A stretch of DNA of 64,000 bases from an uncultured Nitrososphaerota archaeon (GCA_964518475.1 CAZFGR010000001.1:256001-320000); one strand, 5' to 3'. Counted from the first letter of the stretch, positions 6,664-52,592 are shown. The notes: generated by a model not told the origin, from the letters alone. Made by a program: numbers and translations.

Positions 6664-6720
6664 GAATCAGCGAGGGCTCCACTCCTCATTGCTATCGGTC
6701 GACTGTTTACTCATCATCAA
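6664..6720 (-). ncRNA. box C/D guide sRNA (23S rRNA targets)
   Basis: Minus strand: C ATGATGA (6717-6711), guide GTAAACAGTCGA, D' CCGA, C' ATGAGGA, guide GTGGAGCCCTCG, D CTGA (6670-6667). Guide 1 complements conserved LSU CGACUGUUUA. Confidence 0.9.
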
Positions 6721-23533: not shown

Positions 23534-25324
23534 TTGGTGGAGTATATGCCCATGTTATTCGAAACCCTATGCGAGTACTATGATAGATTAGAGAAGCTCT
23601 CAGGAAAAATTGAGATGACTAAAGTTCTCGTTGATTTATTTATTAAAGCGGATCCGGATGAAATAGATAAAATTGTTTACTTAACGACTGGTGAGCTCTG
23701 GCCAGAGTATCTTGGTCAACCAGAGTTAGGCGTTGCTGAGAGATTGCTATTGCGAGCTATTTCTAAAGCAACGGGTGTTCCATTAGAAAGACTAGAGAAA
23801 ATGCTGAAAACTTTAGGAGATATAGGCAAAGTAGCGGAAAGAGCTGTTAGCATGAAGAGAACTCAGGCATTACTTGTTACACCCTTAACAGTTAATGAAG
23901 TCTATGAGAAATTAGTAAAAATAGCTCATGCGACGGGTGAGGGGAGTCAAGACTTAAAATTACGAATTCTAGTCGGGCTATTAGTCTCTGCAAAACCTTT
24001 AGAGGCAAGATACTTAGCACGGATAATCGAGGGGCAGCTTCGATTAGGAGTAGGAGAAATGCTAATTCTAGATGCATTAGCAGAAGCGTTTCTTAGAGTA
24101 AAAAATGGTCGAGAAATTATCGAAAGAGCATATAATAAAGTCCCGGATCTTGGATATATTGCAAAAATTGCTGCAAAAGAAGGAATAGAGGGACTCACTA
24201 AGTTAAAAATAGAACCTGGAAGACCAATCCGACCTATGCTTGCTGAAAGATTAAGTGATCCAGCGGAAATCCTGAGAAAATTGGGTGGAGAAGCCGCGGC
24301 TGAATGGAAATATGATGGAGAACGATGTCAAATACATAAAAAAGGTGATAAGGTATGGCTTTTCTCCCGCCGGCTTGAAGATATAACTAGTCAATATCCC
24401 GATGTTGTAGAATATACTAAAAAGTATGTTAAAGCTGATGAATGTATTATAGAGGGAGAGATCGTCGCAATAGACCCAGAAACTGGAGAAATGAGACCAT
24501 TCCAAGAATTAATGCGAAGAAAAAGGAAATACGACATCCATAAAATAATGGAAGAAATACCTGTAAAGGTATTCCTTTTTGACCTCATTTATCTAAACGG
24601 AGAGGAATTCTTGGACAAACCTTATTTGGAGAGACGGAAAAAGCTTGAAGAAATACTTGTACCAAACGATAAAATGCTACTTTCACATATGAAAATAGTA
24701 AAATCACTGGAAGAATTAGAGCGTTTCTTCTTAGAAGCTATCGAAGCTGGATGCGAAGGTCTCGTGGTAAAGTCTCTAAGAGATGACTCCATTTATCAGG
24801 CTGGTGCACGAGGTTGGTTATGGATTAAGTATAAGCGGGATTATAAATCAGAGATGGCTGACACTGTTGACTTAGTAGTAGTTGGAGCTTTCGCGGGAAA
24901 AGGACGAAGAGCTGGATCTTACGGCGCACTATTAGCAGCTGCTTATAATCCAGAAAAAGACGTTTTCGAAACTGTTTGTAAAGTTGGTTCTGGATTTACT
25001 GATACCGAACTTGATAATTTACCTGTCCTTTTACAGCCGTATATAAGAGACAGAAAACCAGCAAATGTTGAAAGTGTAATGGAACCAGATTACTGGGTAG
25101 AACCAGCATTAGTAATGGAAGTCATAGGCGCTGAACTTACCCTTTCACCAGTCCATACTGCTGCGAAGGATTTAGTCAAAAATAAGCTTGGTAAAGACGC
25201 TGGAATCGCCATTAGATTCCCTAGATTCTTACGTTGGCGCCCAGATAAGGGCCCAAAAGAAGCAACAACGGCAAAAGAACTATTCGAAATGTATCTTGCT
25301 CAGTTAAAGAAAGTTGAGAAGTAG
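23534..25324 (+). CDS. lig: ATP-dependent DNA ligase
   Basis: KYDGER, EGLVVK, WIKYKRDY, IRFPRF motifs. Confidence 0.97.
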   Translation: MVEYMPMLFETLCEYYDRLEKLSGKIEMTKVLVDLFIKADPDEIDKIVYLTTGELWPEYLGQPELGVAERLLLRAISKATGVPLERLEKMLKTLGDIGKVAERAVSMKRTQALLVTPLTVNEVYEKLVKIAHATGEGSQDLKLRILVGLLVSAKPLEARYLARIIEGQLRLGVGEMLILDALAEAFLRVKNGREIIERAYNKVPDLGYIAKIAAKEGIEGLTKLKIEPGRPIRPMLAERLSDPAEILRKLGGEAAAEWKYDGERCQIHKKGDKVWLFSRRLEDITSQYPDVVEYTKKYVKADECIIEGEIVAIDPETGEMRPFQELMRRKRKYDIHKIMEEIPVKVFLFDLIYLNGEEFLDKPYLERRKKLEEILVPNDKMLLSHMKIVKSLEELERFFLEAIEAGCEGLVVKSLRDDSIYQAGARGWLWIKYKRDYKSEMADTVDLVVVGAFAGKGRRAGSYGALLAAAYNPEKDVFETVCKVGSGFTDTELDNLPVLLQPYIRDRKPANVESVMEPDYWVEPALVMEVIGAELTLSPVHTAAKDLVKNKLGKDAGIAIRFPRFLRWRPDKGPKEATTAKELFEMYLAQLKKVEK

Positions 25325-25332
25325 AAAGATAG

Positions 25333-25390
25333 GTATCAGGAGAGGGGCACGTCTTCATGAGTCTCCGGTAGGTGGGGTTATCATCATGTC
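25333..25390 (-). ncRNA. box C/D guide sRNA overlapping the ribL stop codon (probable 16S 5'-domain targets)
   Basis: Minus strand: C ATGATGA (25387-25381), guide TAACCCCACCTAC, D' CGGA, C' ATGAAGA, guide CGTGCCCCTCTC, D CTGA (25339-25336). Confidence 0.88.
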
Positions 25391-49320: not shown

Positions 49321-50685
49321 TCACTGAGAGTCTATTCCCATTCTCTTCAAGATCTCTTTTACTCTATCCGTAATTGGTATTGTTGCACGTTCGAATAATT
49401 CTTTAGGCTCTTTTTTAGTCGCGTCAATGATTATCTTTGCTCTAGGCGTACCACTCTGATCAAGAGTTGATCCTTTGGCTCTAGGTATTATAATAATGTC
49501 TCTTTTTGGGTGTGCTCTTGTAATTACTGCCCAATAAACCTCATTGCAATCGCGTATATTGATATCATCGTCCACTATTATAACTTTTTTTAAGCTAGGA
49601 TGTGCAGTTATTGCTGCTAATCCTACGTTTATGGGTTCATCTTCATGCCTTTTCCTAATAGATATAACGCATTCTAACCAACCACATCCCCAATTTACTA
49701 AGGCTACATCCTTAACAACACCAACCATCTTCGTTATCCGTAGAATGTGAATTTCCCTAGGCAAACCCATCAATGTTCTATGCTCAAAACCCGCAGGTAA
49801 AATTGCATGCAAAATCGGTTTCTCTTTTACAAGAATCTTCTTAATTCTAAAAACTGGCTGTTGTCTTACAGCATCGTAAGTCCCACTAATATCAACAAAG
49901 GGCCCCTCCGAAGCCCGCTTATTAGCTAGAAATTCGCCCTCTAATACTATCTCTGCTAACGGGTATTCTGTATCTACACTAGAACCTGCTACTAATTCGA
50001 GTGGCGTTCTATAGATTCCTGATGCAATTTCAAGCTCGTCAACATCTATAGGAACAGAAATAGCAGCGGCTAATGCAGTAGCTGGATCAACCCCAATTAT
50101 GACAGCGGCTTCTAAATTCTCATTTTTCTCCTCAGCTTTTCTGAGATATGTCCATAGATCTCTCTCAACAACTCTAACCACAACCTCTCTATTACTAATA
50201 GGCGTCATTCTATGATAAGACGCGTTTCTGATCCCTGTTTCCGGATCCTTAGCTATTACAATTCCAGCAGTAATGTAAGGTCCCTTATCTTTGAGATAAA
50301 ACCTAGGGATCGGAACCCTTGATAAATCTATATTACCCTCTGTTTGAAAAACTCTTAGAAAATCTTCTGCATCTCCGATTACTTTCGGTTTAATTGGATG
50401 TTCAATACCGTTTATTACACAGTTGAGTAATTCCTTTTCCGGAATTTTTAGCGCCGTAGATAATCGCATTCTATCTCCATAAATTCCAGTAGCTATTTTG
50501 AATTCCTTGCTTTCCTCAATTTTTTCAAATAGGATAGCATACTTATTTTCAAGCTTCTTTGTTAAAGCGGCAATCTCATATTTTATGGATACGTTCTCAT
50601 CGATTCTTATTAGCAATCCTTTATCTTCTAGCCTTTCTAGTACTTGTCTAAAATTTATCAAAGACTTCACCACATTAATGCTCAT
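49321..50685 (-). CDS. UbiD family prFMN-dependent decarboxylase
   Basis: DKGPYIT, RNASYHR, EGPFVD, VDDDI, AKGSTLD motifs. May be anhydromevalonate-phosphate decarboxylase (inference). Confidence 0.9.
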   Translation of the reverse strand: MSINVVKSLINFRQVLERLEDKGLLIRIDENVSIKYEIAALTKKLENKYAILFEKIEESKEFKIATGIYGDRMRLSTALKIPEKELLNCVINGIEHPIKPKVIGDAEDFLRVFQTEGNIDLSRVPIPRFYLKDKGPYITAGIVIAKDPETGIRNASYHRMTPISNREVVVRVVERDLWTYLRKAEEKNENLEAAVIIGVDPATALAAAISVPIDVDELEIASGIYRTPLELVAGSSVDTEYPLAEIVLEGEFLANKRASEGPFVDISGTYDAVRQQPVFRIKKILVKEKPILHAILPAGFEHRTLMGLPREIHILRITKMVGVVKDVALVNWGCGWLECVISIRKRHEDEPINVGLAAITAHPSLKKVIIVDDDINIRDCNEVYWAVITRAHPKRDIIIIPRAKGSTLDQSGTPRAKIIIDATKKEPKELFERATIPITDRVKEILKRMGIDSQ

Positions 50686-50758: not shown

Positions 50759-50821
50759 ATTTCAGCGCTACGGCAGGTTCATCATTGCTCTTTGCTCAGA
50801 GGTGGTACACATCATCATGTC
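50759..50821 (-). ncRNA. box C/D guide sRNA targeting 16S helix 34 (copy A)
   Basis: Minus strand: C ATGATGA (50818-50812), guide TGTGTACCACCT, D' CTGA, C' ATGATGA, guide ACCTGCCGTAGCG, D CTGA (50765-50762). All four boxes are consensus. Confidence 0.95.
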
Positions 50822-50919
50822 ATTAAATCACGCTAGACAAGAATAGAGAACCTTTTCCTTCCCTTAACCCAAAAGGCATGTTTATTATTTAAGTAATAGC
50901 ATGATGCTTTTAGCGGTTT

Positions 50920-50978
50920 TTATCAGCCTACGGCAAGCTCTTCATCACGAGATCCGGAGGTGGTGCACTCATCATATC
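50920..50978 (-). ncRNA. box C/D guide sRNA targeting 16S helix 34 (copy B)
   Basis: Minus strand: C ATGATGA (50975-50969), guide GTGCACCACCTC, D' CGGA, C' GTGATGA, guide GCTTGCCGTAGG, D CTGA (50926-50923). Confidence 0.92.
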
Positions 50979-51175
50979 ACATAGCAATCATCATAGCATC
51001 GTCCTATTTTATAAAAGGTTCTCCCTAGAGCACTAATATCCTTATATTAGAGATCTTCTTCCGCCGATATATTGATTAGTGCATGATAGCACAATCATAT
51101 AATGAGCTACACTGTAATGATGTGTTCAGTTGTAAGTGCTTATATGCATAGCAGTGGCTAATAAGTGATTGCTCT

Positions 51176-52078
51176 ATGAAGAAATTCTTCCTACAAATAT
51201 TTTTTAGAGAACAAGGATCTCGTGGCACGCTGCTCTACAAAGTGTTTTCTTATGATAGAGATTTACTAGCAGAGGGTCTTTATCCAGTAGGGTTAGATAA
51301 TATTAGTTATAATTACACTCCTAATTATCTAGAGTGGATTCACATCGTTAAGACCCCTTTTATTAATCCCGCAGGTGGGTGCGGAGCTACTAGCTATAAT
51401 AAATGTAAAAGATGCCCACTAGGATCACAAGAGGATCTAACAGTATGTGGTAGAGCACTTGTATATCTGCGTCCCTTTCCACATAAACGCGGAAAATTCC
51501 TGATTAAAGTAGGTGTGGGAGCAGACCTATTAAGACCTAGTTCCCAATCTTCTCCTTTCGCTATAATCTCCACCGATATAACCAGAAGAAAAGCCCTTTT
51601 TCTGGAAGAGTCTTTATCCAATATTTTTAATTTCGTAGTAAGGAATCCACGTGGAAGATTATTATGGTCTGATATTATTGCGAGAGGATTATGGAATGGA
51701 TTTGAGGAAGCTTCTTATCTCCTAGAGATATTACCGCAGATGTATGATAAAGTAAGAAATAACTACCCAGCAATTTACGCTTTATTAACCGATCCAGTAA
51801 TATTTATGCCCACTAAACATTTCTCCAGTCCTTTACCGACATGGATAGAGAAATTACCCATTAGAGATATAAGGAAATACGTTATTCGAGAACCAAATGC
51901 GATATACGGGGAAGTCGTAGCAAATCGGGGAGGATTACTAGTTATTGAGCATGAGGATGGTTTTTGGATATTCGAACCTAATGAACGGAGAATTTATGCC
52001 TTAGAGAAAATAGTTGGTCTTCAGGGAGAATCTACGATTTCCCACTTTGTTAAAAGAAAGATGATACTAAAGGAATAG
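51176..52078 (+). CDS. Cys-rich hypothetical protein, DUF2797-like
   Basis: CG....KCKRC.......C...VYL.......KVGV pattern. Confidence 0.5.
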   Translation: MKKFFLQIFFREQGSRGTLLYKVFSYDRDLLAEGLYPVGLDNISYNYTPNYLEWIHIVKTPFINPAGGCGATSYNKCKRCPLGSQEDLTVCGRALVYLRPFPHKRGKFLIKVGVGADLLRPSSQSSPFAIISTDITRRKALFLEESLSNIFNFVVRNPRGRLLWSDIIARGLWNGFEEASYLLEILPQMYDKVRNNYPAIYALLTDPVIFMPTKHFSSPLPTWIEKLPIRDIRKYVIREPNAIYGEVVANRGGLLVIEHEDGFWIFEPNERRIYALEKIVGLQGESTISHFVKRKMILKE

Positions 52079-52086
52079 GTGAGAGT

Positions 52087-52497
52087 ATGGTCTTATTTTA
52101 TGTGAGAAGGGAATTTCTTGATGCCTTGATTAAGGGAGAGAAAAAGGCAGAATTGCGCGTGGGAGAAAGCTGGATAAAAGTTGCTGAAAAAATTAGAACT
52201 GGAAGATTAAAACCTATAGCTATATTTAAGTGGAGAAATAGAGTTGTGGTAAGAGAGATTTACGATATCAAAGTTTACCCAAGTATTAGAAAAGCTCTAG
52301 CTAACGGCCGTTGGAGATTACTCGGCTTAAAAGCTAAAACATACCCAGAAGCCATCGATGAAGTTAGAAAATTGTATCACAAGGGTGCTAAAGGACATGC
52401 TGTCATGTTTTTTCTCCGAAAACCTAAGAGTTTCTCTAGAGAAGACGCTTTAGCCCTAGTGAAGCAAGTTGATGAAAATGCAGAATTAGAGAATTGA
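52087..52497 (+). CDS. ASCH/PUA-fold domain protein
   Basis: EFLDALIKGEKKAELR motif. Confidence 0.75.
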   Translation: MVLFYVRREFLDALIKGEKKAELRVGESWIKVAEKIRTGRLKPIAIFKWRNRVVVREIYDIKVYPSIRKALANGRWRLLGLKAKTYPEAIDEVRKLYHKGAKGHAVMFFLRKPKSFSREDALALVKQVDENAELEN

Positions 52498-52528
52498 AGT
52501 TAGTGATCTTTTATGCCATTCTCATTTC

Positions 52529-52592
52529 ATATCCGAGTGGTGCACGTTCAGCATCCGCGAAACGCGTCAGTGCAGGTTAGTCTCTTCATCTA
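52529..52592 (-). ncRNA. box C/D guide sRNA targeting 16S helix 34 (copy C)
   Basis: Minus strand: C ATGAAGA (52589-52583), guide GACTAACCTGCA, D' CTGA, cgcg-ttt-cgcg hairpin, C' ATGCTGA, guide ACGTGCACCACT, D CGGA (52535-52532). Confidence 0.85.

Follow-up and report, generated by a model that had tools for sequence, protein, structure and literature searches.

Three small RNA genes lie within a 1.9-kb region of the window, by which we mean the whole 64,000-nucleotide (64-kb) stretch of DNA that was analysed; positions are counted from its first letter. The host is a Njordarchaeales (Asgard) archaeon with a genomic G+C content of 38%, and its source runs are metagenomes from sediments and hydrothermal vents. 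All three genes are intergenic and encoded on the minus strand. We refer to them as sRNAs A, B and C and give the layout of each from 5' to 3', followed by a sequence element upstream of B:

sRNA A, positions 50762-50818, minus strand: box C/D sRNA of 57 nt with canonical C, D', C' and D boxes, reading AUGAUGA, UGUGUACCACCU, CUGA, 10-nt spacer, AUGAUGA, ACCUGCCGUAGCG, CUGA.
sRNA B, positions 50923-50975, minus strand: box C/D sRNA of 53 nt with CGGA as D' box and AUGAAGA as C' box, reading AUGAUGA, GUGCACCACCUC, CGGA, spacer, AUGAAGA, GCUUGCCGUAGG, CUGA.
sRNA C, positions 52532-52589, minus strand: box C/D sRNA of 58 nt with swapped guide order and AUGAAGA and CGGA as terminal boxes, reading AUGAAGA, GACUAACCUGCA, CUGA, 12-nt hairpin spacer, AUGCUGA, ACGUGCACCACU, CGGA.
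TATA-like element TTTTATAAAA, positions 51007-51016, minus strand: read from the sequence, 32-41 nt upstream of the C box of B.

Each RNA begins with a C box (consensus RUGAUGA) and ends with a D box (consensus CUGA), which are canonical in A and B and variant (AUGAAGA/CGGA) in C. Internal D' and C' boxes are present in all three. The guides, mapped from the window sequence, measure 12-13 nt and the RNAs 53-58 nt, in keeping with the guide intervals of about 12 nt and the length of about 50-70 nt that define the class. The original prediction of three C/D sRNAs at this locus is thus borne out in its boxes, strand and guides, and orthologues occur in related genomes. A and B share one order of elements, namely C box, guide to the 5' strand of 16S rRNA helix 34 (h34), D' box, spacer, C' box, guide to the 3' strand, and D box. 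In C this order is reversed, with the 3'-strand guide at D' and the 5'-strand guide at D; such a swap had been proposed, and both the exact mapping and the comparative data agree with it. The spacer of C folds as a CGCG-UUU-CGCG hairpin.

B and A lie upstream of a UbiD-family gene, while C is flanked by a 136-aa open reading frame (ORF) without a Pfam hit and by a PhoH/KH gene. Two adjacent plus-strand ORFs, at 51176-52078 (300 aa) and 52087-52497 (136 aa), both without a Pfam hit, occupy the interval between B and C; the same 300-aa/136-aa pair adjoins the sRNA cluster of the related genome G002 (locus L030). The TATA-like element is a candidate archaeal promoter of B and possibly of a joint B-A transcript. 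A and B are separated by 158-160 nt, matching the distance of about 160 nt given earlier, and beyond the RNA bodies their flanks show no similarity of the kind that would mark a recent tandem duplication.

At gathering thresholds, Rfam returned no match anywhere in the 64-kb window. Below threshold, A scored 22.4 bits against sR11 (threshold 39) and 20.9 bits against snoPyro_CD (threshold 45), and B scored 24.6 bits against sR11 (threshold 39), which places neither RNA within these curated C/D families. Judged by sequence, the likeness of A and B to these families is one of generic box architecture only. RNA runs were listed neither for the 1.9-kb region nor for the shorter A-B stretch of 261 nt.

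No 16S rRNA gene (RF01959) is assembled in the window's own genome, and among 20 relatives only two carry one: G005, of the same genus and partial, and G010, of the same order. We therefore paired the guides against the 16S of G005, the only same-genus sequence found. The G005 contig that bears it has conserved gene order relative to contig C1 of the window's genome and a G+C content of 35-39%, which identifies it as a true relative; the two genomes share 65-72% DNA identity. E. coli numbering was taken from a MAFFT alignment with rrsB, and targets were assigned by a scripted N+5 rule. The six guides, all on the minus strand, are as follows:

D' guide of A, UGUGUACCACCU, positions 50800-50811, minus strand: pairs with 16S 1046-1057 over 12 bp (2 G.U); predicted target G1050; 5 of 20000 shuffles score as high.
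D guide of A, ACCUGCCGUAGCG, positions 50766-50778, minus strand: pairs with 16S 1188-1199; predicted target A1191; expects U1190.
D' guide of B, GUGCACCACCUC, positions 50957-50968, minus strand: pairs with 16S 1045-1056, 12/12 Watson-Crick; predicted target U1049.
D guide of B, GCUUGCCGUAGG, positions 50927-50938, minus strand: pairs with 16S 1189-1199; predicted target C1192; expects U1190.
D' guide of C, GACUAACCUGCA, positions 52571-52582, minus strand: pairs with 16S 1194-1203 with one internal A.C at 1200; predicted target G1197.
D guide of C, ACGUGCACCACU, positions 52536-52547, minus strand: pairs with 16S 1047-1057 over 11 bp (1 G.U); predicted target G1051; 0 of 20000 shuffles score as high.

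Against the G005 16S, complementarity extends over 9-12 bp, for a class minimum of 8-10 bp, and the N+5 nucleotide is Watson-Crick paired in all six guides. When guides were shuffled with their composition preserved and scored within the h34 window, between 0 and 182 of 20000 shuffles per guide matched the observed score. The predicted target pairs are U1049/C1192 for B, G1050/A1191 for A and G1051/G1197 for C, the same positions that had been proposed before the scripted assignment. The idea that the three RNAs tile both strands in one-base steps holds for the 5' strand (1049, 1050, 1051) and fails for the 3' strand (1191, 1192, 1197). Pairing with the opposite strand is itself upheld, with the correction that the guide of C pairs with GCAGGU(C)AGU at 1194-1203 and not with CUACGGCAGGU. 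Compatibility with 16S, which had been proposed as a check, is found for all six guides, with reservations: relative to G005, the D guides of A and B each contain an A.C mismatch next to the target nucleotide, at guide position 4 and 3, respectively, where G005 has C1190 in place of the expected U1190. Together with the A.C at 1200 in the D' guide of C, these mismatches imply that some guides may methylate poorly.

Position 1190 varies among the relatives: in our own alignment of their 16S sequences it is C, G or U, and the seven-archaea alignment of PMC4644070 also contains A. Five species have CCGUAG in the D guides of A and B, implying U1190, so that with C1190, as in G005, an A.C mismatch arises at a distance of one or two positions from the target. 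The B-type guide of G001 instead reads CCGUGG and matches C1190. G001 and G005 share derived features of the C-type RNA, namely a CGGA D' box and a CCUGCG guide end. Since G001 groups with G005 and carries a G in its guide that fits C1190, co-variation of guide and target at 1190 is probable between two subclades, G001/G005 and the others. This leads to the prediction that the 16S of the five species has U1190 and that of the G001/G005 subclade C1190. A search of Logan contigs from four DNA runs of the likely source metagenome with the G005 16S yielded one 335-nt contig at 94% identity, from an unassigned organism and with AGGUGGUGCA unchanged; such contigs are short, the conserved stretch pools many organisms, and a minority letter at 1190 would lie under the 10% reporting share. 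Three metagenome contigs carry a genus-like h34 3'-strand motif, and all three have C1190. Only one of them, L036, has comparable flanking genes, and it was considered as a possible representative of the window species. Its flanking genes are only 68-72% identical to those of the window's genome at the nucleotide level and give the same matches as contig C57 of G005; L036 was therefore rejected as the window species and assigned to a G005-like one.

To place the three RNAs in a comparative frame, we collected orthologues from the relatives G001 to G006 by BLAST and pattern searches followed by inspection. The C type (G1051/G1197) occurs in all seven genus genomes and the B type (U1049/C1192) in five (the window's own, G001, G002, G003 and G004), while the A type (G1050/A1191) occurs in three (the window's own, G002 at 93% identity, and G006). 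Guides cover 1049, 1050 and 1051 together in the window's own genome, G001, G002 and G004. In the five aligned species (alignment A2), the boxes and guides of C are invariant or nearly so, whereas spacers and flanks vary, which is the signature expected of selected guide RNAs. The orthologues of A and B show the same contrast between conserved boxes and guides and divergent spacers and flanks. The terminal boxes AUGAAGA/CGGA of C are identical in these five species and in G005, and the D box of G001 is CAGA. G001, G002 and G004 retain the register of B and have CUGA, the canonical form, as D' box.

The comparison with related genomes that had been proposed thus recovers all three types, and in G002 the genes for B, C and A are clustered within 330 bp, upstream of UbiD. 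There (contig C189, 2040-2440; L030), B runs in the opposite orientation to C and A, and B and C have traded places with respect to the window, which suggests a rearrangement between paralogues. A contig of Candidatus Njordarchaeota isolate B77_G9 carries the same sRNA cluster as C189. Outside the genus, C-type RNAs occur in a second Njordarchaeales family, f2 (G007, G010, G011 and G012), with a perfect 3'-strand guide, UGACCUGCU, and a canonical CUGA box. A similar dual guide in family f17 is directed to G1197 and G1050, where that of the genus is directed to G1197 and G1051.

These comparisons support an origin of A, B and C as paralogues by duplication and register shift. A and B differ by 1-nt indels adjoining the D' and D boxes, and both targets are moved by one position; together with their shared RNA bodies and the comparative data, this agrees with the duplication followed by register slippage that the original prediction had put forward. 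B and C share the core GUGCACCAC, which occupies the D' position in the former and the D position in the latter; A and C share a second core, ACCUGC, found at D and D', respectively. The three RNAs therefore form a circularly permuted, register-shifted superfamily in the sense established for sR56/57. Because the C-type layout is also found in the second Njordarchaeales family, it appears to be the older form, and the A and B types, with their opposite guide order, are on present sampling specific to the genus.

The protein partners of an archaeal box C/D sRNA are all encoded in the window's genome. Fibrillarin (PF01269, 322 bits) and Nop5 (PF01798, 229 bits) are the products of adjacent genes, and L7Ae (PF01248, 95 bits) is also present. 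A strict regular expression finds at least 43 complete C/D sRNAs in the genome and 1 in the reversed-genome control. Two of them lie elsewhere in the window on the minus strand, at 6667-6717, where the D guide pairs with 16S around the AGAGGGUUCCAA segment, and at 25336-25387, where a CGGA D' box accompanies an AUGAAGA C' box. The same association of boxes holds throughout the genome: internal CGGA occurs only with AUGAAGA (11/11), and UGAUGA only with CUGA (22/22). Counted as internal C'/D' combinations over the 43 sRNAs, these are U/U 22, A/G 11, A/U 6, A/C 3, G/C 1 and U/G 0. The pairing of AUGAAGA with CGGA would place an A.G in the K-turn where a U.U pair usually follows the tandem G.A pairs. 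Within the three RNAs, this variant is found at 50939-50956 (C' and D' boxes of B) and at 52532-52535 with 52583-52589 (D and C boxes of C).

Further guides to h34 lie outside the window in the same genome:

sRNA E, contig C1, positions 336418-336474 (window coordinate about 80418), plus strand: fourth h34 sRNA, with predicted targets G1050 and G1182.
sRNA F, contig C7, positions 24898-24946, minus strand: C/D sRNA with predicted targets G1045 and U1075.
sRNA G, contig C11, positions 49918-49968, minus strand: C/D sRNA with predicted target G1061 and, tentatively, C1195.

The D guide of E, UGUGCACCACCA, is directed to G1050, the same site as in A, and its D' guide pairs with 1179-1188 for a target at G1182; E is conserved in G001, G004 and G006. 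For the D' guide of G the best automatic match is not in h34, and the assignment to C1195 comes from a tentative pairing by hand with 1193-1200, by which G would pair with both strands of upper h34. With E, F and G included, h34 becomes a predicted hot spot of methylation with about ten sites, of which G1050 is targeted twice. At C4:83120, a lone half-unit whose guide is directed to G1197 lacks partner boxes and was not counted as an sRNA. In other Asgard families (f17, f16, f9, f14 and f7; for example, loci L040, L041, L045 and L046), box-plus-guide patterns match 1049, 1050 or 1051; these loci are pattern matches, with partner boxes and matching 16S checked in few of them.

With gene anatomy, rRNA complementarity, conservation and protein machinery all observed, the explanation that best accounts for the locus is that A, B and C are genuine box C/D sRNA paralogues that guide 2'-O-methylation on both strands of h34, and we consider it highly probable. 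Their expression, and methylation at the predicted sites, we infer from sequence. According to this proposal, each sRNA would assemble with L7Ae, Nop5 and fibrillarin, and its two guides would pair with nascent 16S in h34, on the 5' strand in the lower part (1045-1057) and on the 3' strand in the upper part (1188-1203). The nucleotide facing guide position five, counted upstream from D' or D, would then receive a 2'-O-methyl group from fibrillarin, which would give Um1049 and Cm1192 for B, Gm1050 and Am1191 for A, and Gm1051 and Gm1197 for C. When the two strands of h34 are cofolded, the known G1064-C1192 pair is recovered and the two guide sites fall on opposite, staggered halves of the helix, so that a bound RNA would be expected to keep both halves open and, as we propose, close together. 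A folding-chaperone effect may accompany methylation.

The one-base tiling could instead be a product, on paper, of the N+5 rule. The RNAs would then still exist and bind h34, with methylation at some of the six sites only, and the paralogues would be partly redundant or in competition. The 5'-strand guides all span the same 11-12 nt, so only one RNP could be bound at a time, and in yeast, overlapping guide sites on h34 do interfere with each other (PMC5464676). The double targeting of G1050 by A and E and the near-target mismatches in the D guides of A and B, as measured against the only available 16S, point in the same direction. However, the registers of A and B are each conserved in several species, that of B with a canonical CUGA in G001, G002 and G004, which argues for selection on distinct positions. 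In addition, adjacent predicted sites that arise from indels in duplicated guides are documented in archaea (PMC4644070). On balance, partial methylation of this kind seems unlikely.

Somewhat less likely still is that the main selected function is to aid rRNA folding during assembly of the 3' major domain, with methylation as a by-product or absent. The paired guides would, in this view, keep the h34 strands separate from each other yet near one another while the domain forms. Four RNAs would pair with both strands of h34 (A, B, C and, by the tentative hand assignment, G), and two-strand pairing of the C type appears older than its exact targets, which are G1050 in f17 and G1051 in the genus. 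A chaperone model of this sort has been proposed for sR17 (h28) and sR15 (h30) of Nanoarchaeum equitans (PMC4644070). Yet conservation extends to the registers of the guides with respect to D and D', a feature of consequence for methylation alone, and the boxes that position fibrillarin are intact in a genome that carries the fibrillarin gene; methylation and chaperoning are, moreover, compatible with each other. That the loci have no function and represent box-like motifs arisen by chance or decayed pseudogenes, as the non-consensus terminal boxes of C and the lack of an Rfam match at gathering threshold might suggest, is effectively refuted by the conservation pattern, in which the guides are conserved and rRNA-complementary and the variant boxes of C recur in five aligned species and co-vary as the pair AUGAAGA/CGGA, and is further opposed by the count of 43 regular-expression matches against 1 in the reversed genome.

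Guidance of methylation by A, B and C, our preferred reading, has close parallels in published systems. The sR56/sR57 superfamily of Pyrobaculum arose by an ancient within-genus duplication with circular permutations, and its guide cores are offset by indels so that both 16S targets are shifted by 2 nt (U877/G908 versus A879/G906), a process termed 'target migration' (Lui et al. 2018, PMC6009581). A, B and C resemble this superfamily in their duplication, shared guide cores and indel-offset targets. They differ in lying on h34, in a shift of 1 nt rather than 2, in comprising three or four members rather than two families, and in belonging to Asgard archaea rather than Thermoproteota; no sequence homology between the two sets has been shown. 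Dennis et al. (2015, PMC4644070) describe duplicated sRNA genes of Methanopyrus kandleri (sR24/sR25 and sR39/sR119/sR88) whose predicted sites are displaced by indels at the ends of the guides, invoke such indels for 'numerous instances' of neighbouring predicted modifications, and report that sR88 is a circularly rearranged paralogue and that several sRNAs share one site. The M. kandleri set has other targets, and none of the passages considered describes three consecutive nucleotides on one helix strand. The same paper reports that the D and D' guides of N. equitans sR17 and sR15 pair with opposite strands of h28 and h30, the basis of the chaperone proposal; as described there, these are single RNAs on different helices, whereas A, B and C form a tiling set of paralogues on h34. 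The RNA-chaperone idea is thus an existing hypothesis (PMC4644070, PMC7994747).

A different parallel is provided by yeast, where snR55 (Um1269), snR40 (Gm1271) and snR4 (ac4C1280) have overlapping sites on the 5' strand of 18S h34 (Sharma et al. 2017, PMC5464676). As in our set, several box C/D RNAs overlap on this strand; in contrast, each yeast snoRNA has one h34 guide and none to the opposite strand, and no middle site (1050) is reported. Um1269 and Gm1271 would be the counterparts of E. coli 1049 and 1051, which are the predicted targets of B and C, as deduced from the motif GGUGGUGCA(U/C)GGCCG and the +2/+11 spacing to Gm1271/ac4C1280 rather than from an alignment. The likeness of the yeast and archaeal h34 guides could reflect either homology or convergence. 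That Asgard archaea and eukaryotes inherited methylation at 1049 and 1051 from a common ancestor, with the Njordarchaeales set preserving or elaborating an ancestral module for h34 assembly and modification and adding the middle nucleotide and, on each RNA, an opposite-strand guide, strikes us as a long shot. Guides to 1049-1051 in other Asgard families are as compatible with convergence on a strand that is exposed and conserved as they are with descent.

Duplication, target shift by indels, circular permutation and chaperone-like guides to opposite strands have already been published for Methanopyrus, Pyrobaculum and Nanoarchaeum. With the principle established, the value of the present case is incremental, except if the positional match with eukaryotic h34 proved ancestral. 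A full-text literature search combining Asgard with box C/D sRNA or snoRNA returned no paper describing them, and within the literature searched our analysis offers a first look at the C/D sRNAs of an Asgard lineage. It predicts that U1049, G1050 and G1051 are methylated as Um1049, Gm1050 and Gm1051. The locus thus provides a clean, genus-wide and checkable case of the diversification of methylation-guide RNAs, in which duplication, 1-nt indels beside the D and D' boxes and a guide swap would have led to predicted methylation at three consecutive nucleotides in the helix of the decoding site.
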